A DNA stretch of 11,088 bases from a virus (lineage: Duplodnaviria > Heunggongvirae > Uroviricota > Caudoviricetes), in IMG/VR virus record IMGVR_UViG_2744054872_000001, positions 1-11,088 of that record, one strand, 5' to 3'. Numbering within the stretch: the first letter of the stretch is position 1; every line of letters begins with the position of its first letter. The position numbers and the translations under genes were made by a program. Positions 1 to 11,088 of this stretch are shown here, in pieces. The notes under the pieces are model-generated. The model was not told the origin of the DNA, searched no databases, and saw only the letters and a program-made list of their open reading frames with translations.

Positions 1-201
1 CTGATGGAAATGGAAGCCACGCAAGCACCTTAAAATCACCATCATACACTAAATCAGTAAGTTGGCAGCATTACCCAGATACCAGTCCCCCCATATCAAG
101 AACATTGGCTAACGTATAAGCGGCTTTTTGCTGGAATGATGGATCTTGTCCTGATTTAAGCCCAAACGCTCGACGTTGCGCTTCTGTATCATTCCAACCG
201 G

Positions 202-720
202 TTAAGCGAATTCCCAAAAACGCAAATCAACGATCGCTTCTTTGAATTCCGCGTCGTCTTCAGGTGGCAATGCTGCACGGCGCATCTCCAGCATTTCCAT
301 TGCCCAACCATCAAGCGGCACGATACGCCATTGATAAGGTACTCCCTCTACAGGCACCTCAATATCGTCAATGAACGGTTCCACTTCCAGGACCTGGATA
401 TCTTCAGCCAGAGCATTCATATCGCAATCGTAATAATGCTCTTTACCGCAATGTTTACAGGTGTAGGTGAATGTCTCGACCGGTGTTTCACGGGAGCCGG
501 TAAATATCCACCATAACGCGGTAATCCGGTCCTGCGCCGTCCATGTCAGGGGATCATGTTTCGCGGGTTCAGCCAGCAAGGCTTTTAAATACGCCGTTGT
601 CTGTTGTTCTTGTTCCTCCGGTGTTATCGAGTTGAAACGCATCGCATCAGCAATATTTGGCTGACGGAACTGGATCAATTCAGTTGGCCGCGATGGTAGC
701 GGGAAAAGGGGTAAAAGCAT
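202..720 (-). CDS. Hypothetical protein (172 aa) with a Cys cluster (C-x-H-C-G-x7-C-D); last gene of a three-gene operon
   Basis: ATG at 720-718, stop TAA at 204-202; 14 bp after the upstream gene; protein-like composition. Function not recognised. Confidence 0.55.
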   Translation of the reverse strand: MLLPLFPLPSRPTELIQFRQPNIADAMRFNSITPEEQEQQTTAYLKALLAEPAKHDPLTWTAQDRITALWWIFTGSRETPVETFTYTCKHCGKEHYYDCDMNALAEDIQVLEVEPFIDDIEVPVEGVPYQWRIVPLDGWAMEMLEMRRAALPPEDDAEFKEAIVDLRFWEFA

Positions 721-734
721 CCTTGCTCCTTAAT

Positions 735-1346
735 TCAAAGAGAAAAACTAAAGCCCAGAAGGGAAGCCAAAGAACTTGAGGATTGGTTAAACGTGCTGTG
801 CAATGCGAAGGTCATTGGGAATGACTTAAATTCCGTAACCTGATCCCGCGCATAGGTGACATCGCCGGTAGTGACCGGGAATACCGTCATCTCATTTTCC
901 AGTTTGGTTAAGCCGGAAGACAGCAACCGATAAATACGCACATTGAGCAAATATTTAGACGGTATATTCCCGGTACCGTCCGGATTGATCACCCGACTTT
1001 TTGCCGTCTTAAACCAGTCCAAAACGAGGCCATCAACGGTATCCCTGACCATCATTGTTATCTGCCCAGGCGAACGCTCTGTTGGTTGAAGGATATTCCC
1101 TCCGCCGATTTTAATCGTTTCATATTCGATGCTGTAATCGTGGTAGGTAATGTCTTTGGCAAAGAAGTCTGCCCCCTCCAGTCCATCAACTTCGACAGAG
1201 AACTGCCATCCTTGCGCGAACAGCATTTTGTTCATGATGATTGACGTCAGCTTACCAACTTCCCGCTCACCAACGCCGGAGCCAAATAATGTCGTCGTTA
1301 ATGCCGAAGATACATAAGACTTTACTGAAGCAACATTAAGCCCCAT
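735..1346 (-). CDS. Hypothetical protein (203 aa), middle gene of the three-gene operon
   Basis: ATG at 1346-1344 preceded on the minus strand by GAGGGGG; 10 bp after the upstream gene. No family recognised. Confidence 0.55.
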   Translation of the reverse strand: MGLNVASVKSYVSSALTTTLFGSGVGEREVGKLTSIIMNKMLFAQGWQFSVEVDGLEGADFFAKDITYHDYSIEYETIKIGGGNILQPTERSPGQITMMVRDTVDGLVLDWFKTAKSRVINPDGTGNIPSKYLLNVRIYRLLSSGLTKLENEMTVFPVTTGDVTYARDQVTEFKSFPMTFALHSTFNQSSSSLASLLGFSFSL

Positions 1347-1356
1347 ATCAGCCCCC

Positions 1357-1964
<608 letters not shown>

Positions 1965-2053
1965 ATGTCATTTGTCCATTGTGCCAACTGTTATTATGGA
2001 TATCATAATTCATACGAATCGCGCTGCTACAGGATGTATAGCAACCTTAATAA

Positions 2054-3313
2054 TTATTTGAATATATCAGTTATAGTTGGGTAATTATACATCTTAAGCT
2101 TATCTCTAAATTTCATAGAAAATATAGGGTCTACCTTACATCTGTGTAAGAGCTTTGCAATCCTTAGCTCCCTCTCATTCATAATATCTTTGTATTCGCT
2201 ATCAATACTTTCCTGAATTTGCTGATTCTCAACAGGAGACGGTTTAGTAATTTTATCCCATTGATAAGTTGGCTTCGTAGTGTAATTTAAACTATCATCA
2301 TTTTGGAGTAATGCCTCAAGACGAGACTTAGCATTTTCATATAGCATTCTATCTTGGGGCAACATACTTGCAACACGCATTTCCATTTCAATTTCCGATA
2401 CTATCATTTCAAGTTGACGTTTTTCCGTTTCAATAGCTAAAAGAAATGGAAATAGGGCTTCTTGCTTAATCATTTGACAATTCAAATTATTGTTTATGCC
2501 ACTAAGTAATTTTGTAAATGAGAACTTCTTTAAAGGCTGCTGATTTATAACACTCTGTCTAACTGGCATTGTGTAGTTCGGTGTTTTTTCAAGTGTTTTC
2601 TTCACTTGCTCTATAGCAACATTAGGAGTGTAGAAAACAGTCTTTGCTGGAATACGTAGCACCATAAACCCCTCCTTTATTGAATATTCATCACGAATAC
2701 GATCTCGCTCTATTTGTTCTGGGGATGAATGCCATGCTGCACCATCAATTTCTATAATTTGGCGTCCATTTACGACAAAATCAAAACGATAACGCTTATA
2801 GGGCACTTGCATTTCAAGCACTAAGTCAGGAGAAACTAACATTCCAGATTTAGGTTTAAGATTAAACTCTGCAACCATTTTACGAAGAAATGCCTCCTCA
2901 GCCGGAGATTCGCAACCTTTGCAAAATATATCAAGCCAGTTTTCTGCGTCAGCGTCAACAGTTTGCCACCATGCTAACAGTCCACGTCGGTGTCCATATA
3001 ATCGTTCATCTGACGGTTTTGTTAATGGCTTTGTTAACGGTTTAACTAAGGGTTCATTTAACGGCTTTAATAACGGCTTAAATAACGGCTTATTTAACGA
3101 ATTTAATAACGATTTATTTAATGGTTTGATTGACGGTCTATTTGACGACTCAATCGGTGGTTTAGATGATGATTTGTTTTTTTTATCAAAACCTACGATA
3201 GTTATATATGCTACATATAGCATCATGCCTGCAACAGGCCATACACATGGATAAATCACGTAACACAACAGTAATAGAACAATAGTCCCAAAAAATGTTA
3301 ACTTCTTCCGCAT
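2054..3313 (-). CDS. Membrane-anchored DUF559 (Vsr-like / restriction-endonuclease-fold) domain protein, 419 aa: two N-terminal hydrophobic helices, KPLx repeat linker, DUF559-like core, coiled-coil C-terminus
   Basis: N-terminus MRKK + two hydrophobic helices followed by DKKNK; linker KPLF-KPLL-KPLN-EPLV-KPLT-KPLT; core RFDFVVNGRQIIEIDGAAWH...RDRIRDEY...GFMVLRIP matches the DUF559 signature FDF...IE.DG..H...D..RD...G..VLR from memory. About 33% GC. Confidence 0.7.
   Translation of the reverse strand: MRKKLTFFGTIVLLLLCYVIYPCVWPVAGMMLYVAYITIVGFDKKNKSSSKPPIESSNRPSIKPLNKSLLNSLNKPLFKPLLKPLNEPLVKPLTKPLTKPSDERLYGHRRGLLAWWQTVDADAENWLDIFCKGCESPAEEAFLRKMVAEFNLKPKSGMLVSPDLVLEMQVPYKRYRFDFVVNGRQIIEIDGAAWHSSPEQIERDRIRDEYSIKEGFMVLRIPAKTVFYTPNVAIEQVKKTLEKTPNYTMPVRQSVINQQPLKKFSFTKLLSGINNNLNCQMIKQEALFPFLLAIETEKRQLEMIVSEIEMEMRVASMLPQDRMLYENAKSRLEALLQNDDSLNYTTKPTYQWDKITKPSPVENQQIQESIDSEYKDIMNERELRIAKLLHRCKVDPIFSMKFRDKLKMYNYPTITDIFK
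3013..3140. repeat. Imperfect 12-bp tandem repeat (about 9-10 units, consensus near TTWAATAACGGC) encoding the KPLx linker
   Basis: ACGG/ACGA/ATGG recurs at 3013, 3037, 3061, 3073, 3085, 3097, 3109, 3121, 3133, i.e. 12-bp period from 3061 onward; in frame with the 419-aa CDS. Confidence 0.7.
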
Positions 3314-3540
3314 ACCAAACTCTTTGCATCAATAAAGGGGACTGGCTTATATAATCAAATCACATGCCCGAAATAAAAGATGACCAACACCAACGGAAAT
3401 CACACTCTAAACTAATATACATTAACACTTAATATCGCCATCACAATTGATTGATTATGCTAATTTAAAAATGATATTTTTACAGAGAATATACAGCTCT
3501 ACAAGATGACTATTACACCAAAATTTAAAAAAATCATTGG

Positions 3541-3582
3541 CAACCTTGTAGAATTGATATTAACAATCGATTCTACGGGTTG
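3541..3582. promoter_or_regulatory. Palindrome copy B: CAACC-TT-GTAGAAT-N15-ATTCTAC-G-GGTTG; candidate operator for the 419-aa gene and/or weak terminator for the upstream operon
   Basis: Core GTAGAAT 3548-3554 and ATTCTAC 3570-3576 with a 15-nt spacer, identical spacing to copy A; on the minus strand the hairpin is followed by a U-rich tract (AUGAUUUUUUUAAAUUUU). Confidence 0.45.
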
Positions 3583-3628
3583 CCATTTGCTACATAGAGT
3601 GTAATAAGAGAGGATGGTTCAACGGAAA

Positions 3629-4168
3629 TTACCACCAGCTACTGGCTTTTTTCTCCCTTGCTTTACCTTCGCTTTGCAATAAATCCTTACTCCCTGAAGA
3701 GATGTTACGATTTGCATCAGCTTCAGACTGAATCACATCAGTTCTTGCAGCCCTTTCCTTTAGCTCCTGCTCAATGAAATCGTTTTCTCTCTTAACTCGA
3801 GCAGCTTTCGCTTGTAGCTCAAGCTTCATTTTCTCAAGTTCTAATTTACGAAGCTCATCTTCATAAGCCTGATTTCGCTTTTTCTCTGCGGTCAATTCAG
3901 CTTCACGCTTCGCTCTGCGCTCATTTTCCGCCGCTATACGAGCTTTCTCGCGGGCATTTGCAGCTGCCGCAGCCCTCTCTCTTCTTAAACGTTCAGCATT
4001 TTCTTGCTTGCGAATTTGCTCTAGTCTGGCATCCTCCAGCTGCTGTTCTCTTGCTCGACCTTCACTTTCTGCCTGGGCAATAGCAGCTATTTGACTCTGC
4101 AATGAATTAGCAAATACATTGCCTGTATTCAAAGCAGCCAAACATAAATAACAAATAATTTTCTTCAT
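3629..4168 (-). CDS. Secreted (Sec signal peptide) charged coiled-coil protein, 179 aa
   Basis: N-terminus MKKIICYLCLAALNTGNVFA|NS looks like a cleavable signal peptide; the rest is E/R/K/A-rich heptad-like sequence; starts 11 bp after the lipoprotein stop. Confidence 0.7.
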   Translation of the reverse strand: MKKIICYLCLAALNTGNVFANSLQSQIAAIAQAESEGRAREQQLEDARLEQIRKQENAERLRRERAAAAANAREKARIAAENERRAKREAELTAEKKRNQAYEDELRKLELEKMKLELQAKAARVKRENDFIEQELKERAARTDVIQSEADANRNISSGSKDLLQSEGKAREKKASSWW

Positions 4169-4179
4169 ATCTTATTGAG

Positions 4180-4701
4180 TTATTTTTTATCAGGACATGT
4201 AGCATTAGGTTGAATGCGCGTTTCGTTTTCTTTCGTTGAAATCAAAGCCGCGATTCCAGGGGCAAATTGGCAAGCTCTACCAACCTGTGTAGATGTATAG
4301 ACTTTAGTACCTTCCTTGTAAGTAAGAGATACACCTTCAACAATTGATTTATCACTTACCATAGAACCAGCAGCTGCGCCAAGAGCTCCACCGCCAGCAC
4401 CACCAGCAACTGCACCCAAGGTAGAAGTTCCTTTAATATTATATCCAGCAACACTACCAGCTACTGCACCGAGAACAGCACCGAAAGTCTGAGCTGCTTG
4501 TTTATTAGCTGTATTATCAACTTTTACTTTGGCTGGGAGAACAGAGATTATATTTACTACTCTTGTTTCTTGTTTTGAATTAAGTTGGGCTGTGTCGTAC
4601 ACATCTGCCGCATATTCAGCACCATTAGACTGACACCCTGAGAGAAAAATTGCAGAAACAACCATGACGCATAAAGAAGAAATTTTAGCCATTAGAATCA
4701 T
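4180..4701 (-). CDS. SlyB-like outer-membrane lipoprotein with glycine-zipper domain (about 170 aa from ATG 4701; alternative ATG 4692; the ORF-track start at 4752 is probably too long)
   Basis: Lipobox FLSGC after a K-containing n-region; Q at +2; GxxxG zipper AVLGAVAGSVAG...AVAGGAGGGALGAAAGS; architecture resembles SlyB/Pcp family. Confidence 0.7.
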   Translation of the reverse strand: MILMAKISSLCVMVVSAIFLSGCQSNGAEYAADVYDTAQLNSKQETRVVNIISVLPAKVKVDNTANKQAAQTFGAVLGAVAGSVAGYNIKGTSTLGAVAGGAGGGALGAAAGSMVSDKSIVEGVSLTYKEGTKVYTSTQVGRACQFAPGIAALISTKENETRIQPNATCPDKK

Positions 4702-4766
4702 CCCAGAAAAAAAATATAATCCAAGAAAATCTATCACATAAGCCAAATACAAACAAGATTAATCCT

Positions 4767-4815
4767 ATTGATGTATATCAATTATTATAAAAAATACGAT
4801 CTTCATTGCTGAAGC
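4767..4815 (-). promoter_or_regulatory. Candidate promoter for the lipoprotein/coiled-coil operon with an inverted repeat ATTGAT-GTAT-ATCAAT at the predicted start site
   Basis: Minus-strand TATAAT at 4789-4784; weak -35 around 4808-4813; inverted repeat 4767-4782 directly downstream. Sequence inspection only. Confidence 0.3.
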
Positions 4816-4982
4816 TGCGTTATATTAAGTCTAAAAAAATCAACTATCGACATTATATGCTCTGCTAATAATTTACACTTGATTTAGTTGAGTTGGTTTA
4901 ATATTGACACTAACTCACTCTCTAATTATATACAATTTCCAATTTTATATGCGCATATATGGAAACCTATACCAACAGCATG

Positions 4983-5030
4983 TTGCTCTAATAAATTTGT
5001 CTTTTTAAGTCACGAATGCTATCTTTTCGC
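4983..5030 (+). repeat. Conserved upstream box, copy 1 (TTGCTCTAATAAATTT-N-TTTT-TAAGT...GAAT...TTTCG)
   Basis: About 27 of 35 core positions identical to copy 2 at 6644-6692; lies about 300 bp upstream of the 73-aa ORF and first antirepressor gene. Confidence 0.5.
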
Positions 5031-5312
5031 ATCATATTGACCTTTTAATCGTTCAGGCTTATAGTTCCGCCGTCGTAGCAAATTCTGCGACCGGGTTTAG
5101 CAGCCTGAATGATTGTGCGGACAGCCGCAGATATCCGATATTGCGGTATTTTTGTGTCCGTAAAACCGCGTTACGCCCAAATTATGGTGGGACGTGATGG
5201 GGAGGCTTCGGCCTGCTGGTTTCACAATCGCCAGTCTGCTAACCCCGTCACGTCCTGCCACCTGTTTAGCAGCGGGTAGCAGGTTGTTAAACCTGATTGT
5301 GAGGCCGTAACT

Positions 5313-5534
5313 ATGGTTAATGCCAATCCTTACGCACGCCAAGAATTCATCTGGCGTTTCTATTCCTGTAAAAAACACCACTATCACTTCGTCATCGCAG
5401 CAACAGAAGACGAAGCACGCTCTCAATTGCCTGATGGCCCCTGCATTTTTACTGCCCGTTTTTCAACTAACTCGCGCAATTCACTTAGTTACTGGAACCT
5501 CCCCTTCTCTGCCGACGTTCAGGGGGATTTATGA
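5313..5534 (+). CDS. Small hypothetical protein (73 aa), translationally coupled to the downstream antirepressor
   Basis: GAGG 9-12 nt upstream of ATG 5313; stop TGA overlaps the ATG of the next gene (ATGA at 5531-5534); more protein-like than overlapping frames. Confidence 0.4.
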   Translation: MVNANPYARQEFIWRFYSCKKHHYHFVIAATEDEARSQLPDGPCIFTARFSTNSRNSLSYWNLPFSADVQGDL

Positions 5535-6565
5535 AAAAACCTCTCGTCACCCGTAATGAAATAGCCGAAGCGATCGCCCTGCATACAACCTGTATGCCGA
5601 CACGGGAGATCCCCGGCGCAATTGCCAACTATTTCATGATAACCAGACGTTTTTATACCCGAACAGATAAGGCTGTGATCAACAAGCTACTGATAGCCGA
5701 GATCAGGGATTATTTGATTGAACAAGGACGTCTACGTTACGCAACAGTGGCAGCAGAAATGAGAAAGGAGGCACACAGAGTGACCGGTAAAAATTTGAAT
5801 ATTGAAAAACCAGCACCTGTTACGTCAGCTACGCCAACACCAGCCGTGAATGTCATCCCCAACATCGGAGACACAATCGACAGCCAAACATTGTTGAAGA
5901 TGGTCAATGAGGCACGGAAATTATGTAGCGAAAAACCAGTTCGCAATAATGATTTCATTGCCAGAGTTAAGGATGAACTTGAAGGAGAAACCTACGAAAT
6001 TTTCGTAGGTCAAAAAAACGGCGCAGAAATAGATATTATAACAATGACCTACAAACAAGCCCTGCGAGTTGCCGCGCGCGAGTCAAAAGCGGTCCGCCGT
6101 TCGCTGATCGACAAACTGGAAGAATTACAGCAGGCAAACTCCCCTACCCCATCGATCCCCCAGACATTACCAGAAGCCCTACGCCTGGCTGCCGAGTTAG
6201 CAGAACAGAAAATGCAGTTGGAACAACAGCTGGTGGCCGCAGCCCCTAAAGTCGATTTTGCCGACCGGGTATCAGTGGCCAATGGAATCCTGATCGGGAA
6301 CTTTGCAAAGGTCGTTGGACTTAAGCAAAACGCCCTTTTCTCATGGTTGCGCCAGAACGGCATTCTCATGGCTTTTGGTGCGCGCAAAAACGTACCGCGC
6401 CAACAGTACATCAACGCCGGGTATTTCACGGTGAAAGAAGTGGTGTTGGATGATGAAAATGGCTACCAGATACGGCTGACGCCCCAATTAACGGGTAAAG
6501 GCCAGCAGTGGTTAACTCGCAAGCTACTTGATGCTGGTTTGTTAAAACCAGTAGCAATAGGTTAA
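5531..6565 (+). CDS. Phage antirepressor, KilA-C (ANT-type) C-terminal domain, 344 aa
   Basis: C-terminal block LPEALRLAAELAEQK...PKVDFADRV...GILIGNFAKVVGL...LFSWLRQNGIL...RKNVPRQQYINAGYF matches the KilA-C signature and is paralogous to the next gene; SD GGGGGA before ATG. Confidence 0.8.
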   Translation: MKKPLVTRNEIAEAIALHTTCMPTREIPGAIANYFMITRRFYTRTDKAVINKLLIAEIRDYLIEQGRLRYATVAAEMRKEAHRVTGKNLNIEKPAPVTSATPTPAVNVIPNIGDTIDSQTLLKMVNEARKLCSEKPVRNNDFIARVKDELEGETYEIFVGQKNGAEIDIITMTYKQALRVAARESKAVRRSLIDKLEELQQANSPTPSIPQTLPEALRLAAELAEQKMQLEQQLVAAAPKVDFADRVSVANGILIGNFAKVVGLKQNALFSWLRQNGILMAFGARKNVPRQQYINAGYFTVKEVVLDDENGYQIRLTPQLTGKGQQWLTRKLLDAGLLKPVAIG

Positions 6566-6576
6566 CAAAAGAAAAA

Positions 6577-6603
6577 ACCTGCCAGCAAACTGACAGGTTT
6601 CTG
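6577..6603 (+). terminator. Weak hairpin (8 of 9 bp stem, CAAA loop) after antirepressor 1; A-run upstream and short T-run downstream
   Basis: ACCUGCCAG-CAAA-CUGACAGGU with one C-A mismatch; only UUU follows on the plus strand. Confidence 0.3.
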
Positions 6604-6643
6604 AGCAGATCGACCAACCCGATCTGGATCGAGTTAGAAAAAT

Positions 6644-6692
6644 TTGCTCTAATAAATTTCGTTTTCTAAGTGCAAAGAATCACCATTTCGAG
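6644..6692 (+). repeat. Conserved upstream box, copy 2, about 40 bp before antirepressor 2; followed by inverted repeat AATCACCA-N8-TGGTGATT (6678-6701)
   Basis: Direct repeat of 4983-5030; its position relative to the 6729 start suggests promoter or operator. Confidence 0.5.
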
Positions 6693-6728
6693 CTGGTGAT
6701 TGAAGGTTGATGCAAATTTGGAGAAAAA

Positions 6729-7529
6729 ATGCAACAAACATTCAATGCGGATATGAATATATCAAACCTTCATCAAAATGTCGATCCTTCAACCACTCTT
6801 CCCGTTATTTGTGGTGTTGAAATTACGACCGACCGCGCTGGCCGTTACAACCTTAATGCTCTACACAGAGCGAGCGGACTCGGTGCCCATAAAGCGCCAG
6901 CTCAATGGCTAAGAACGCTGTCAGCTAAACAGCTCATCGAAGAGCTTGAAAAAGAAACTATGCAGAATTGCATAGTTTCGTTCGAAGGCCGTGGCGGCGG
7001 CACTTTTGCCCATGAATTGCTCGCAGTGGAGTACGCTGGTTGGATTTCTCCCGCGTTTCGGCTGAAGGTAAACCAGACATTTATCGACTATCGAGCTGGA
7101 AGATTACAACCTGCTATTCCGCAGAGTCTCCCTGAAGCTCTCCGTTTGGCTGCCGAACTGGCAGAGCAAAAGCAACGGCTGGAGCAAAAAATGCTTATGG
7201 ATGCACCTAAAGTCGAATTCGCCGAACGCGTTGCTACCGCCAGCGGGGTTCTAATCGGCAACTATGCCAAAGTGCTCGGCCTGGGCCAAAACTATCTCTT
7301 CACCTGGTTGCGTGATAACGGAATTCTGATCGCAACCGGTGAACGCAGGAACGTCCCCAAACAAGAATACATATCCCGTGGATATTTCACCCTTAAAGAA
7401 ACCGTGATCGATACAAGCAATGGAAGCAGGATTTCTTTCACGACTCGTATAACCGGCAAAGGTCAGCAGTGGCTGATGAAGCGATTGCTTGATGCTGGTG
7501 TGCTGGTACCTGTCGCGGCAACGCGCTAA
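6729..7529 (+). CDS. Phage antirepressor with KilA-N N-terminal domain and KilA-C C-terminal domain, 266 aa
   Basis: N-terminal YNLNALHRASGLG...GTFAHELLAVEYAGWISPAFRLKV resembles KilA-N; C-terminal block paralogous to 6130-6565; SD GGAG before ATG. Confidence 0.8.
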   Translation: MQQTFNADMNISNLHQNVDPSTTLPVICGVEITTDRAGRYNLNALHRASGLGAHKAPAQWLRTLSAKQLIEELEKETMQNCIVSFEGRGGGTFAHELLAVEYAGWISPAFRLKVNQTFIDYRAGRLQPAIPQSLPEALRLAAELAEQKQRLEQKMLMDAPKVEFAERVATASGVLIGNYAKVLGLGQNYLFTWLRDNGILIATGERRNVPKQEYISRGYFTLKETVIDTSNGSRISFTTRITGKGQQWLMKRLLDAGVLVPVAATR

Positions 7530-7558
7530 CAGACGTAGTAAGAACCACCAGCATTGTA

Positions 7559-8059
7559 ATGCTGGCTAAAGTCACTTTCCTGAGCTGTATAACGATGAGC
7601 GATTTTACTTTTTCTGGCTATGAATTGGCCTGCTTTGTAACACACTCCGGTCTATCCCGTAGCGCCGGGCATATCCTGTCGCAATGTGCAAATCTCGCGG
7701 CAACAACCAGTGAATACTTCATTCACAAGCCTCACCGCCTGATCGCGGCAGAAACTGGTTATAGCCAATCAACCGTCGTTCGTGCATTCCGTGAAGCTGT
7801 AAACAAAGGAATCCTGTCTGTAGAGATTGTTATCGGCGATCACCGTGAACGTCGCGCTAACCTGTACCGGTTTACACCATCCTTTTTGGCCTTCGCACAA
7901 CAAGCCAAAAATGCGCTGACTGAAAGCAAATTAAAGATCTCTTCAGCGGCAACCAAGGTTAAAGCTGTTATCGCTAAGACATTGGCTTTATTTAATTTTA
8001 TATCCACACCCCATGTCAAAATGATACCCCCTCCCCCTGTCAGGATGACGTGGCAATAA
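7559..8059 (+). CDS. Putative helix-turn-helix DNA-binding protein (166 aa; start may instead be ATG 7595)
   Basis: HTH-like segment AETGYSQSTVVRAFREAVNKGIL; ATG 7559 sits inside hairpin 7548-7565, so the start is uncertain. Confidence 0.4.
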   Translation: MLAKVTFLSCITMSDFTFSGYELACFVTHSGLSRSAGHILSQCANLAATTSEYFIHKPHRLIAAETGYSQSTVVRAFREAVNKGILSVEIVIGDHRERRANLYRFTPSFLAFAQQAKNALTESKLKISSAATKVKAVIAKTLALFNFISTPHVKMIPPPPVRMTWQ

Positions 8060-8403
8060 AGAATAAGAAGTCACAAGTTAAAAAAACAAAAAGATCAGTT
8101 TCCGGCGGTGCCGGAACGTCCAGACTCAAAAAATTGACTTCATGGATCGCTGAGGCAAAAGCAAAGGCTGACAATCTGCGGTTATCCCAAAAACGCGCTC
8201 AAAAACATGAGTTCAAGCAGAAAGTAGAGGCGGCTGCGCGGAAATATGCTTACCTGAAGAACAAGCGTTCGCCTGATATTGGCGGGATATCAAACTTCGA
8301 TAACCTACCGCATTGCATGACGGTAAACGAAGCTCTTAATGCGGTTTTAGCCAAAAATAAAGATAACGATCAATGGGGTATACCGGCGGGATTCAGAGGG
8401 TGA
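8050..8403 (+). CDS. Basic lysine-rich hypothetical protein (117 aa), GTG start overlapping the upstream stop
   Basis: ORF begins with GTG at 8050 and overlaps the previous ORF by 10 nt; K/R-rich; no family recognised. Confidence 0.3.
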   Translation: MAIKNKKSQVKKTKRSVSGGAGTSRLKKLTSWIAEAKAKADNLRLSQKRAQKHEFKQKVEAAARKYAYLKNKRSPDIGGISNFDNLPHCMTVNEALNAVLAKNKDNDQWGIPAGFRG

Positions 8404-8553
8404 TAGATTGCTCTAATCTGGAGTCACCTGGCGTTTTCAGTATGGATTTTCTTTGGCGCGGTCTGGCCATTAGGGATCATGTTTGCTGCAACGTTTCTTC
8501 TGATGTGGGTATTCACCCTTCCAGGTGATTTCTATAGAAAAAAAGCCAGACAT

Positions 8554-8562
8554 TGATACAAT
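8554..8562 (+). promoter_or_regulatory. Candidate hok mRNA promoter: extended -10 TGaTACAAT, predicted start near G8569/8570
   Basis: TG at 8554-8555 plus TACAAT 8557-8562; predicted start coincides with the 5' element GGGUGCUUGAGG (8569-8580), which is complementary to the 3' element at 10289-10301. Confidence 0.4.
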
Positions 8563-8631
8563 CGCTGCGGGTGCTTGAGGCTATCTGCTTCAGGCATTAC
8601 CCGAAAAGCAGATAGAAGAAAGCCCCAGATA

Positions 8632-8690
8632 ACATTACGCGTCCTGCAAGACGCTTAACATTAATCTGAGGCAATATCTATGCTTAGCAT
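8632..8690 (-). ncRNA. sok: Sok-like antisense RNA (approximate ends) complementary to the mok SD and start region
   Basis: Minus-strand TTGACC (8724-8719), 18-bp spacer, weak -10 TAATCT (8700-8695); predicted transcript covers mok SD 8668-8671 and ATG 8680-8682; ends in hairpin GCGUC-UUGCAG-GACGC (8656-8641). Position inferred from hok/sok family architecture. Confidence 0.5.
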
Positions 8691-8886
8691 ACGTAGATTA
8701 GCCTCTTACCGACCAAAAGGTCAAGGAGAAGCAGGCTATGAAGCAGCAAAAAGCGATGTTAATCGCTCTGATCGTCATCTGTTTAACCGTCATTGTGACG
8801 GCACTGGTAACGAGGAAAGACCTCTGCGAGGTACGAATCCGAACCGGCCAGACGGAGGTCACTGTCTTCACAGCCTACGAATCTGA
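8680..8886 (+). CDS. mok: Mok-like overlapping reading frame (68 aa) that overlaps hok in another frame
   Basis: ATG 8680 with GAGG 8 nt upstream; covers hok in a different frame and ends 7 nt before the hok stop, as expected for mok. Confidence 0.6.
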   Translation: MLSIRRLASYRPKGQGEAGYEAAKSDVNRSDRHLFNRHCDGTGNEERPLRGTNPNRPDGGHCLHSLRI

Positions 8887-8893
8887 AAGGTAA
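8738..8893 (+). CDS. hok: Hok/Gef-family type I membrane toxin, 51 aa: MKQQKAMLIALIVICLTVIVTALVTRKDLCEVRIRTGQTEVTVFTAYESER
   Basis: Own translation of 8738-8893; AAGGAG 10 nt upstream; single TM helix plus the conserved RKDLCEV...R.G...V.F.AYE motif; close to HokC/HokD as recalled, exact paralog not assigned. Confidence 0.9.
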   Translation: MKQQKAMLIALIVICLTVIVTALVTRKDLCEVRIRTGQTEVTVFTAYESER

Positions 8894-8915
8894 GAGACCT
8901 GGCGGGGAGAGATCC

Positions 8916-10253
8916 CATAAGCGCTAACTTAAGGGTTGAACCATCTGAAGAATGCGACGCCTCGGTGCCTCGTTAAGACGATGCCTCGCGTTCTTCAATT
9001 GCGTTTTGTAGGCTGTCAGGGATACTGTCCCACGAATGGCCACCTGTAAGCTCCAGATGACCATTTTTGTTATTCTCCACAACGAGTTAGTTCTTCTTTT
9101 CGGATCCGGCACTTCTGGGGGGGAAATCCAGCGATGGCTGGATTATGTCGTCAATTAAAAATGCGGCGAGTAGATTAGCAAATATCCACGCTTTCGCGAG
9201 TTCAGGTTCCTTTGCACGCAAAGCATCCAGGTGCAGCAAACTTTTGAGCCGCTTAAAAGCCAGTTCAATTTGCCATCGCAGACGGTAACAATCAGCCACT
9301 TGCTCTGCTGAATATTCATCTTCCGGTAATGATGTTAGCAATAGCACATGGCCCGCTGCTTCCAGCGTTTCCGCCTGAACTACTCGTCCTTTTCGACGAT
9401 TCTCGCTGAGCAGTCGGGTTTTACTGATTAATGCTTTTTCGGGAGGAAGTGATACGGCAATGAGACGTGCCGGAAAGGGAGCTCCGGCTTTTTTATTACC
9501 TGAATTGCCTATCATTACAGTGGTTTCACCGTTCTTACCGCAATCCAGCCCGCGCAGAAAACCCATCATGTCAAAGCGCATTCCTTCTGCAGTTAACCAG
9601 CGCAATCCTCGCCAGTGAACCCGGACGATATAATCAGCTTCTCCAAAAGCAAGTGAGCGGATACATTCGGGACGCGAACCGAATCCCCGGTCAGCAATGC
9701 GTATCTCGTCTGCCGTTTGCGCAAATCGGTCCAGCCGTTCAGCGTCTCTGCTGTCGGTTAGCTCAAAATCAGTGAACTGACAGGTATGAGGATCATATCC
9801 CATATGTAGTCGCCATTCAGCGCTGCCGCCCCCGGGCGCACTGATTGCTGTTCCATCGACAAGACGCAATCTCTTTCCGCTTGTACAACCCGTAACTGCG
9901 GCGCGTACAGCAAGTGTTTGTGCGGCAAGTATGCCAAACCAGTCGGCGGCATTCCGCAGCCGCTTCAGGAGAGCCACGTCAGATAATGTTGCAACGTCAT
10001 GGAGCTGAGCCCATGCAGTGACTTCACGTAATGACATCCCCCCGGGCCGTAAGCCAGCCCCAGACGTAGCAGAGTTGCAGCATCACGAATTTCGCGGCGG
10101 CGGGTTAGAGCCCCGGCATTACGTGCCGAAGTATCCAGTTCTTCGGGCTTACCAATATGGGCCAGAATTGCTGACCAGTTATCGTGAGAGTAATTCATCG
10201 GCACGTTAAATCATATCAGGCGTAATACCACAACCCTTAAGTTAGCGCTTATG
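8916..10253 (-). mobile_element. IS186 (IS4 family), complete 1338-bp copy with terminal inverted repeats and 10-bp target duplication GGAGAGATCC
   Basis: Left end CATAAGCGCTAACTTAAGGGTTG (8916-8938) and right end CAACCCTTAAGTTAGCGCTTATG (10231-10253) are reverse complements; direct repeats GGAGAGATCC at 8906-8915 and 10254-10263; encoded protein matches IS186 InsL as recalled. Confidence 0.9.
9087..10198 (-). pseudogene. insL: IS186 transposase InsL, reading frame broken by a 1-nt deficit in a G-run (plus-strand C6 at 10038-10043)
   Basis: N-terminal 54 aa MNYSHDNWSAILAHIGKPEELDTSARNAGALTRRREIRDAATLLRLGLAYGPGG (from ATG 10198) are in one frame and MSLREVTAWAQLHD... (9087-10037) in the +1 frame; one extra G would restore a 370-aa ORF. 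Could be a true mutation or a homopolymer sequencing error. Confidence 0.8.
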
Positions 10254-10311
10254 GGAGAGATCCCCGCCACTCTTCGTGTGTCAGGTATCCTCAATGCACC
10301 CTTTCCTCTCC

Positions 10312-10338
10312 AAATAAAAAAGCTCCCGAAGGAGCTTT
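10312..10338 (-). terminator. Rho-independent terminator (AGCUCC-UUCG-GGAGCU + UUUUUUAUUU on the minus strand); likely bidirectional between the hok 3' end and the convergent minus-strand gene
   Basis: Perfect 6-bp stem 10321-10336 with tetraloop; strong U-tract on the minus strand, weaker on the plus strand. Confidence 0.6.
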
Positions 10339-10357
10339 AAAATACAAGGGATGACTC

Positions 10358-10708
10358 TTAATCCCACTCAATCCAGTTGTAGACGATACGAAGTGACGGG
10401 CGCACAGCGGCAGTCACATCTTCGGTACTAAAGTCGATTGCATCACTGTAGATTTTGCAGTCCAACATTTCAATTGTTGTAGCAGCTTTTGTCACAGCGT
10501 TAACCCCGGAAGCTTTGGATTCAGGGGTAGCAGCCATCGTGATATCAACATAGTCCTTCGCCGCAATGCGATCCTTAATGAACTGAAGAATATCGCCTTC
10601 GATAGTCTCCACGCACTGGACCTGGATTTCCCCAGAGTTTCGAATTGCTCCGTGCTGGTTGAACTTCACACCATTCGGACCATAGTCCTCCACATCCTCT
10701 CGAGTCAT
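10358..10708 (-). CDS. Hypothetical protein (116 aa from ATG 10708); the frame stays open upstream into the IS3-family end, so this may be a 5'-truncated remnant
   Basis: Stop at 10358-10360 followed by the terminator; no SD before ATG 10708; the frame is open from 10709 to the IS boundary at 10785. Confidence 0.4.
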   Translation of the reverse strand: MTREDVEDYGPNGVKFNQHGAIRNSGEIQVQCVETIEGDILQFIKDRIAAKDYVDITMAATPESKASGVNAVTKAATTIEMLDCKIYSDAIDFSTEDVTAAVRPSLRIVYNWIEWD

Positions 10709-10784
10709 TTCAGGGATTTGCGACGTGCGAACCAGTACGCTGATATCTTCATGGCCTGCAAAAGTGAGCTGGAATTCAGAAGAT

Positions 10785-11088
10785 TGAACCGCCCCGGAAA
10801 TCCTGGAGACTAAACTCCCTGAGAAAGAGGTAAACAGGATGACTAAAAATACTCGTTTTTCCCCCGAAGTCCGTCAGCGGGCGATTCGTATGGTTCTGGA
10901 AAGTCAGGATGAATATGACTCACAGTGGGCGGCAATTTGTTCCATTGCCCCAAAGATTGGCTGTACGCCGGAGACTCTGCGTGTCTGGGTTCGCCAGCAT
11001 GAGCGGGATACCGGGGGCGGTGATGGTGGGCTCACCAGCGCTGAACGTCAGCGTCTGAAAGAGCTGGAACGTGAAAATCGTGAACTGC
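10785..11088 (+). mobile_element. Left end of an IS3-family element (IS629/IS1203/IS3411-like), running off the window
   Basis: Terminal TGAACCGCCCCGG... at 10785 followed 53 bp later by an OrfA start; protein [64 protein letters not shown]...ELERENREL matches IS3-family OrfA as recalled. Confidence 0.8.
10838..11088 (+). CDS. IS3-family transposase OrfA (HTH + leucine zipper), 3'-partial at window end
   Basis: ATG 10838 with AAGAGG 8 nt upstream; open to the end of the window. Confidence 0.85.

Follow-up and report, generated by a model that had tools for sequence, protein, structure and literature searches.

The stretch of DNA analysed here, hereafter the window, comprises the 11,088 nucleotides of IMG/VR virus record IMGVR_UViG_2744054872_000001 (Caudoviricetes; positions 1 to 11,088). 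It carries, within a P1-like phage-plasmid backbone, an AT-rich island of three genes: one for a 419-residue protein combining a hydrophobic N-terminal hairpin with an endonuclease core of the Vsr/DUF559 type, and two for a lipoprotein and a secreted DUF5384 protein. A sequence-only reading of this region had taken the three genes for a single undescribed module. This view is not supported, as the envelope pair is found without the nuclease in approximately 180 P1-like plasmids, and the island rather appears to be composite, with an autonomous nuclease gene, since relatives of this gene lack neighbours similar to yfgH or yfgI and the gene outlives deletion of the pair. With moderate confidence, we interpret the locus as a variable P1-type cargo slot holding two functionally separate units, of which the nuclease unit would act at the membrane; the anatomy and the autonomy of the nuclease are much more secure than its function in defence.

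Anatomy of the 419-residue nuclease

The gene and the parts of its product are the following (pLDDT, predicted local distance difference test).

2054-3313, minus strand: DUF559/Vsr-fold endonuclease gene, 419 residues (open reading frame; Pfam DUF559)
3185-3304, minus strand: hydrophobic helical hairpin, residues 4-43 (hydropathy; proline-containing turn YPCVWP)
2978-3184, minus strand: disordered, basic, proline-rich tether, residues 44-112 (pLDDT below 50 over residues 47-110)
2579-2977, minus strand: Vsr-like nuclease core (PD-(D/E)xK superfamily), residues 113-245
2057-2578, minus strand: helical C-terminal domain, residues 246-419, conserved and of no known family

The Pfam model of DUF559 (PF04480) matches residues 167-241 with 29.1 bits, for a cut-off of 20.6, and that of MTES_1575 (PF18741) reaches 37.6 bits, just under its cut-off of 38.2. 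The AlphaFold2 model of the protein (mean pLDDT 80.6) displays a confident alpha/beta core at residues 126-243, and this core has the alpha/beta nuclease fold of the Vsr type. Across an alignment of 50 sequences, W126, C134, E135, S136, P137, A138, E139, D178, E188, D190, G191, H195, R203, D204, R207 and D208 are invariant, and among them E139, D178, E188, D190, H195 and D204 align with the D / ExDG..H / D..R motif of the structure 3hrl. We infer that these conserved acidic and histidine residues are catalytic. Judged by its profile match, fold and motif, the 419-residue protein is a true Vsr/DUF559-fold endonuclease with a conserved active site, and its activity is predicted. Both the DUF559 core proposed by the sequence-only reading and the PD-(D/E)xK-like residues whose integrity it had singled out for checking were thus recovered, the former by a Pfam match above cut-off and the latter by their invariance in 50 homologues.

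The same reading had described two hydrophobic N-terminal helices and a KPLx repeat linker, and these were recovered as well. Hydropathy delimits a hydrophobic span at residues 3-43, in which AlphaFold2 places helices 3-20 and 22-47, and a comparable hairpin, typically of 30-40 residues and located about 30 residues before the CESP motif, was detected in 33 out of 34 genomic homologues. By the positive-inside rule, this hairpin would be an inner-membrane anchor with both ends in the cytoplasm, as basic residues flank it and its turn is uncharged. The KPLx linker corresponds at the DNA level to a tandem repeat of 12-bp units (3022-3121; TRF). The tether exceeds that of other family members by about 60 residues, and its length differs between alleles; owing to the KPLx expansion, 91 residues separate the hairpin from the CESP motif in the window protein, versus approximately 30 in a typical member.

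The C-terminal domain is predicted with high confidence as helical (helices 266-337 and 364-408, pLDDT above 90), so that the ‘coiled-coil tail’ of the sequence-only reading stands for its helical character only. Positions E297, W352, P358 and R381 are conserved in this domain, which on its own matched nothing in Pfam or among PDB sequences. A PDB profile search retrieved the DUF559 core plus chance helical matches only, and a BFVD fold search likewise returned matches to the nuclease domain only.

A database search yielded 64 homologues with the full architecture, almost all of 360-400 residues and from alpha- and gammaproteobacteria, and an exhaustive profile search about 220 clusters at 50% identity (E<=1e-30), most of those listed covering most or all of the profile. 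These homologues are mostly located in bacterial chromosomes and in small plasmids devoid of phage late genes; no relative was found by tblastn in 50,697 phage records. A literature search on DUF559 combined with transmembrane or anti-phage terms did not return any description of the family, which appears uncharacterised. Among the carriers are 3-kb Rop/ColE1 plasmids of Escherichia coli and Shigella (NZ_CP180698.1, 3072 bp; NZ_CP058889.1, 2998 bp), whose sole cargo gene is a nuclease homologue of 365-368 residues with approximately 51% identity; this homologue was left unannotated in NZ_CP058889.1.

A probably composite island in the sim locus

The two other genes of the island form an envelope-associated pair.

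4180-4692/4752, minus strand: lipoprotein gene, 170 residues (170-190 according to the start codon; alternative starts 4701 and 4752)
3629-4168, minus strand: gene for a secreted DUF5384 protein, 179 residues (PF17358 at 150 bits; PHROG 1094)

When its sequence is read, the lipoprotein displays the lipobox LSGC with Q at +2, and it shares 84% identity with Upf50.5 of phage P7 and 65% with YfgH of E. coli K-12 over 163 residues (PHROG 1277). The Pfam glycine-zipper models stay below threshold on this protein (21.6 bits for a cut-off of 25), yet the lipobox and the identity to YfgH agree with the SlyB-like glycine-zipper lipoprotein named by the sequence-only reading: by these features it is an outer-membrane glycine-zipper lipoprotein, paralogous to YfgH and P7 Upf50.5. 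A Pfam match to TraT (24.1 bits, cut-off 31), which is below threshold and overlaps the low-complexity glycine zipper, was not counted as support for a role in surface exclusion. In PHROG 1277 and several RefSeq phage records (NC_050152, NC_042128, NC_031129), the YfgH-like lipoprotein is named ‘DNA methyltransferase’, which is evidently a propagating annotation error in P1-like phages.

The second protein, for which the sequence-only reading had announced a signal peptide, indeed carries one when read by eye (ending in VFA, before NS), belongs to the Pfam family DUF5384, and is 80% identical to P7 Upf50.0 and 49% to K-12 YfgI. Both genes are in the same order as the adjacent chromosomal yfgH-yfgI of K-12, a pair whose presence was detected in 5419 out of 5426 complete E. 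coli genomes; of the phages, hardly any but the P1-like ones carry the DUF5384 gene. The envelope pair is hence already known, as a diverged allele of P7 Upf50.5/Upf50.0 and a set of paralogues of the core genes yfgH/yfgI. YfgH has been described as a SlyB-like glycine-zipper lipoprotein stabilizing the outer membrane under stress (bioRxiv 10.64898/2025.12.22.696046), and for yfgI mutants a sensitivity to DNA damage has been reported.

In PLSDB, the pair exists as two discrete alleles with no intermediates, the nucleotide identity between window and P7 types being about 75% (65-83% along the profile). The window type comprises 16 full copies and 4 deletion derivatives, with the nuclease in 20 out of 20, whereas none of the approximately 180 records of the P7 type contains it; P7, SJ46 and RCS47 also possess the pair and not the nuclease. 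By this distribution, the linkage of pair and nuclease in P1-like plasmids is one of descent from a single acquisition, and the three genes were found together in other genomes only as this one inherited haplotype, a lack of independent co-occurrence which the sequence-only reading had itself named as evidence against a module.

A second nuclease allele, of 410 residues (loci L007 and L008), is carried by a window-type island lacking the 972 bp that correspond to window positions 3412-4383 (blastn breakpoints). With these 972 bp, the DUF5384 gene and the greater part of the lipoprotein gene were lost, and the nuclease gene is intact in the 7-8 E. coli plasmids concerned. The breakpoints indicate a deletion instead of an independent acquisition of the 410-residue allele without the pair; this allele is therefore evidence for survival of the nuclease in the absence of the pair, and not for a separate arrival.

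When the two alleles are compared (window 2057-3184 versus L008 8001-9233), residues 113-226 are identical, and the nuclease core displays 3 nonsynonymous and 1 synonymous changes (synonymous divergence, dS, 0.012). The C-terminal domain, with 27 nonsynonymous and 9 synonymous changes (dS 0.099; ratio of nonsynonymous to synonymous divergence, dN/dS, 0.68), is the most divergent part of the protein, and the KPLx repeat contains an indel of 8 residues; over the whole gene, dN/dS is 0.79. Such an uneven distribution suggests either a mosaic allele or a diversification of the C-terminal domain, and the gathering of changes in this domain and in the tether is a pattern that would be expected of a recognition module.

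Could the lipoprotein, the DUF5384 protein and the nuclease nevertheless constitute one system spanning outer membrane, periplasm and inner membrane, which would sense or block and then degrade incoming DNA? The genes are co-oriented and may be co-transcribed, no terminator being predicted between them (the counts from simple scans for promoters and terminators were near those obtained with shuffled sequence, and no conclusion on regulation was drawn from them). The three products are all envelope-associated, their slot is the exclusion locus of P1, the region 1976-4999 is one haplotype block relative to P7, and the window-type pair was only met with the nuclease. However, a single acquisition is sufficient to explain this linkage, and the pair does without the nuclease not only in the P1-like elements listed above but in nearly every E. 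coli chromosome. Conversely, the nuclease does without the pair in the deletion derivatives and on the 3-kb plasmids. Outside P1-like elements, a yfgH/I-like gene was present within 8 kb of the nuclease gene at none of 53 loci from other bacteria, and no neighbour family was common to more than 3 of 39 loci, so that no conserved partner emerges. We accordingly consider a single three-gene system unlikely.

The limits of the island and the elements bracketing its genes are the following.

1950-1974, minus strand: P1 late promoter LPsit, copy 1 (98-99% identical to LPsit as annotated in P1 and P7)
1955-1960 and 1965-1973, minus strand: -10 box (TAGAAT) and -22 box, respectively, of LPsit copy 1
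1976-3629, minus strand: segment of 1654 bp without P7 counterpart (29 bp in the same place in P7)
3565-3589, minus strand: putative diverged LPsit core, copy 2 (-22 box AAATGGCAA, -10 box TAGAAT; gapped alignment with the LPsit of P1, P7 and the window)
4693-4981, no strand: AT-rich intergenic region (GC about 0.28; approximately 50-60% sliding identity to P7)
4982-4998, plus strand: C1 repressor operator Oc4 (Op51) of the immI region (one mismatch to ATTGCTCTAATAAATTT; annotated in the same place in P1 and P7)

The AT-rich block and the three co-oriented minus-strand genes reported from the sequence were both retrieved. GC content is 0.368 over 1965-5050 versus 0.475 in the left flank and 0.488 in the right, no other stretch of 3086 bp in the window being as low, and the open reading frame listing gives three genes in the same orientation, all intact. 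Within the island, GC content is 0.356 for the nuclease gene, 0.415-0.439 for the two envelope genes, and 0.324 and 0.279 for the two intergenic regions. LPsit copy 1, which drives pmgC-tub-pmgB, forms the left boundary, homology to P7 stopping at position 1975 (blastn breakpoints); the right boundary is Oc4, where identity to P7 and P1 rises to 99%. The intergenic region just before this operator should hold the promoter of the lipoprotein-DUF5384 operon.

The segment that has no P7 counterpart contains the nuclease gene as its sole gene, with 78 bp downstream and 315 bp upstream (GC 0.351), and was detected in 24 of 5426 complete E. coli genomes, on plasmids every time. Its simple insertion into a P7-type locus was rejected, as the identity profile reveals a single diverged block over the whole of 1976-4999. 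LPsit copy 2 was detected as a direct repeat (D4; 84% identity over 25 nt), 40 bp beyond the end of the DUF5384 gene and approximately 250 bp ahead of the nuclease start codon. Homology between both copies extends over approximately 55 nt, up to an ATG (1915-1975 and 3535-3592), each copy having a downstream hairpin, and copy 2 is followed by a 12-codon open reading frame in place of pmgC. These copies bracketing the nuclease segment may represent a recombination scar, or a late promoter driving the nuclease gene.

The genes and regulatory elements around the island are those of P1.

Left flank: pmgB, tub and pmgC (PHROGs 1854, 1842 and 1851, respectively)
Right flank: c4, icd, ant, kilA and repL (ANT and KilA-N by Pfam)
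5059-5111: c4 a1b1 element, target of the C4 RNA (Rfam)
5180-5265: C4 antisense RNA (Rfam)
4982-4998 and 6643-6659: C1 operators (consensus scan)

With this gene content, the window is identified as part of a P1-like phage-plasmid. Several E. coli plasmids of 71-99 kb match its region 1900-5150 with 100% identity; one of them, pTetA_020022, has P1 genes annotated around the corresponding locus. DNA-level matches to P1 and P7 are confined to the flanks of the island, with 98-100% identity. The same slot is occupied by simC, simB and simA in P1 and by upf50.0 and upf50.5 in P7, so that from its flanking elements the island is assigned to the sim (superimmunity) locus, between LPsit/pmgC and the C1 operator/c4 RNA. 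The statement that the island lies between phage-like genes (pmgC/tub/pmgB to the left, c4/icd/ant/kilA to the right) is therefore correct, and the proposed position in a moron or exclusion hotspot turned out to be exactly that of P1 sim.

The host plasmid is degraded, with a truncated pmgB, a frameshifted repL and several insertion sequence (IS) elements. pmgB is reduced to 172 of 293 codons near position 203, where the sequence jumps to a sit fragment, with IS1 directly to the left of the pmgB/sit junction; repL is broken by a frameshift into open reading frames 7559-8059 and 8050-8403. With this damage (window 1-720 and 7559-8403), the plasmid is probably unable to form tails or to replicate lytically. 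The island is also present, at 99.5% identity, in an apparently intact P1-like plasmid of 98.7 kb.

Several other features were observed in this backbone. A hok/sok type I toxin-antitoxin locus lies at 8569-8893, with an Rfam sok match of 114 bits (8569-8743) and a Hok-like open reading frame of 51 residues (8738-8893; RefSeq name hokD). It is followed by an IS4-family (IS421-like) transposase gene frameshifted into two open reading frames (9087-10204), and by a fragment of P1 backbone (10254-10784). Within ant1, a patch at 6000-6099 shares 68% identity with P7 inside a region otherwise at 96-100%, and could mark either a short tract of recombination or a region of indels. On pTetA_020022, a gene annotated as an anti-phage deoxyguanosine triphosphatase (dGTPase defence) lies about 4.5 kb to the left of the window (locus L001, 4478-5833); the element therefore has at least one recognised defence gene elsewhere.

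Proposed function and competing explanations

Under the interpretation of a cargo slot with two separate units, both units would have entered the plasmid lineage together, as one diverged haplotype block. The first unit, a two-gene operon for the outer-membrane glycine-zipper lipoprotein and the secreted DUF5384 protein, would act on the envelope of the lysogen, either by strengthening the outer membrane or by blocking entry. The second unit would be a single autonomous gene for a membrane-anchored Vsr/DUF559-fold endonuclease. Its N-terminal hairpin would insert in the inner membrane, leaving both ends cytoplasmic, and the basic KPLx tether would keep the nuclease at the cytoplasmic face of the membrane and off the nucleoid; thus tethered, the enzyme would cut DNA crossing the membrane, be it from a superinfecting phage or from a plasmid. 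Alternatively, the nuclease might be released or activated upon infection and kill the cell. The fast-diverging helical C-terminal domain could be involved in oligomerisation, regulation or target recognition. Because of the architecture, the context and the locus, we would give about even odds that the protein is a membrane-tethered nuclease acting either on incoming DNA or as an abortive-infection effector.

The surroundings of the nuclease relatives suggest an association of the family with defence or mobile elements. One relative is located beside a Lamassu-like operon (LmuB/C), another next to a SMEK-domain protein, and type I restriction-modification and resolvase genes were found twice beside relatives, once also with Fic. 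The 118 nearest neighbours of 33 loci include SoFic (twice), ZorD, LmuB, NsnA, AbiJ, PDC-S04 (twice) and HipA, along with three integrases, several transposases and many housekeeping genes. A more ambitious reading, which we hold only tentatively, is that the family constitutes a hitherto unrecognised single-protein immune system, which would cut foreign DNA on its entry at the inner membrane and in which the rapidly diverging C-terminal domain and the KPLx tether of variable length would set the range of invaders recognised, and that the sim locus is a general swap-site for non-homologous entry-blocking cargo (Sim, YfgHI-like proteins, membrane nucleases).

Several observations weigh against the preferred interpretation. 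About 8 of these 118 neighbours are defence-like, a raw count given without background, and many loci are plain housekeeping. No PADLOC-DB 2.0 model matches the 419-residue protein over its full length: the only matches, weak and local, were those of the nuclease domain with PDC-S37 (E 1e-5) and with Hhe (E 2e-3), neither envelope protein matched anything, and scans of the three proteins with PADLOC, NCBIfam and PHROGs did not name any system. The hydrophobic span, of about 34 residues in most homologues, is short for two full membrane crossings, so that a re-entrant or other topology is possible, and the weak charge of the C-terminal flank of the hairpin would also be compatible with a periplasmic orientation. 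The window-type pair was never met without the nuclease in P1-like plasmids (all 20 PLSDB records), and from this co-occurrence alone a functional coupling of both is possible. Finally, the nuclease gene lies downstream of a late-promoter-like sequence, so that its role may be lytic rather than lysogenic.

This last point leads to a nuclease that would work for the lytic growth of the phage itself, with late expression from the LPsit-like promoter, for example by degrading host or competitor DNA near the membrane or by processing DNA before lysis. The upstream promoter core, with its -22 box and TAGAAT, is indeed oriented like the late sit operon, and the minus strand of 3314-3628 did not yield any good sigma-70 promoter (scan counts near the shuffled level). 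Nevertheless, most homologues reside where there are no phage late genes, P1 and P7 manage without the nuclease, and the gene is kept in a degraded plasmid which, with sit lost and repL frameshifted, is incapable of lytic growth; we give little credence to this role. It is just as improbable that the gene is a selfish homing-type endonuclease, inserted between conserved phage genes with no benefit to the host, even though its core resembles I-Bth0305I and its segment is a clean single-gene one. A membrane hairpin kept by nearly all homologues is ill-suited to an enzyme that needs a chromosomal target, no DNA-binding module (NUMOD, helix-turn-helix) was detected by Pfam in the 419-residue protein, and phage genomes are devoid of relatives; moreover, the family occurs at unrelated chromosomal loci with non-conserved flanks, and the diverged promoter copies around the segment suggest recombination. 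That the island is inert acquired DNA, possibly silenced by H-NS, with genes decaying as passengers of a degraded plasmid, would fit the state of the latter, an AT-rich composition typical of silenced foreign DNA and the whole-gene dN/dS between alleles. We regard it as very improbable, given that the three open reading frames are intact and that a nearly identical copy exists in an apparently intact plasmid, that both alleles have the same nuclease core and gather synonymous changes in other parts, and that active-site residues are invariant across an alpha- and gammaproteobacterial family.

Comparison with known systems

The island shares its genomic slot and orientation with simABC of P1. 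Sim is an exported and processed protein, as the two envelope proteins appear to be, and plaque formation by P1 proceeds without the sim genes. BLASTP of the three island proteins with SimC gave no significant alignment; in terms of sequence, the island is thus a non-homologous replacement of simABC. The closest counterparts of the pair, P7 Upf50.5/Upf50.0, have the same gene order, sizes, lipobox, signal peptide and slot between LPsit and Oc4, and differ from it as a separate allele. Among the YfgH/YfgI proteins, only the chromosomal YfgH has been studied, and the phage-borne copies present in the P1-like plasmids of PLSDB are candidates for lysogenic conversion or exclusion.

The known DUF559/Vsr-like enzymes (NGO0050, 3hrl; Vsr, 1cw0; I-Bth0305I, 3r3p; the restriction endonuclease domain MTES_1575) are soluble, and are either stand-alone proteins of about 100-150 residues or fused to helicases or DNA-binding modules. 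The succession of hairpin, tether and helical C-terminal domain predicted here occurs in none of the described members.

Membrane-tethered nucleases acting in defence as single proteins have been described with other folds. Hence, the claim of the sequence-only reading that no described system has this composition is literally right, but its principle has precedents. ShdA, of the Shield system, joins a transmembrane anchor to an RmuC nuclease, and this single gene suffices for defence. It lowers transformation efficiency, its anchor-less version is toxic or cannot be cloned, and the anchor is thought to restrain toxicity. Like the window protein, in which this arrangement is predicted, ShdA is a membrane-tethered nuclease of the PD-(D/E)xK superfamily with a cytoplasmic catalytic domain. 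The two differ in their nuclease (RmuC versus DUF559) and in their anchor (one transmembrane helix versus a hairpin), and ShdA is often accompanied by partner genes ShdB-E, whereas the window nuclease has no conserved partner. No Pfam match to RmuC was found in the 419-residue protein, and Shield models were absent among the PADLOC matches.

SNIPE, in which a transmembrane anchor is joined to DUF4041 and to a GIY-YIG nuclease, cleaves the DNA of a phage while it is being injected. Its nuclease is the most conserved part, while accessory and N-terminal parts diversify, and a pair of transmembrane segments is present in about 7% of the SNIPE homologues. From its sequence, the window protein would resemble SNIPE in joining, within one polypeptide, an N-terminal membrane anchor to a cytoplasmic nuclease and to an extra non-catalytic domain, and its alleles also combine a conserved nuclease with diverging other parts. 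However, the fold is GIY-YIG in one case and Vsr/DUF559 in the other, neither DUF4041 nor GIY-YIG was matched by Pfam in the 419-residue protein, and its accessory domain follows the nuclease.

If the nuclease turned out to be inactive or irrelevant to invading DNA, the island would be an ordinary accessory block. If the proposed function is correct, a third and unrelated nuclease fold would share the layout of ShdA and SNIPE, implying that this strategy arose repeatedly, and the proteins described here would form a compact new family distributed over P1-like phage-plasmids, 3-kb plasmids and chromosomal islands across Proteobacteria. The comparison also identifies the P1 sim locus as a hotspot for the exchange of non-homologous envelope-associated cargo. 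Membrane-anchored nucleases for which location, and not sequence or DNA modification, distinguishes self from non-self have been described only recently (ShdA in 2023, SNIPE in 2025). Compared with these systems, what seems new in the window is the nuclease family, whereas the envelope pair, the sim slot and the principle of a membrane nuclease with other folds were already known.

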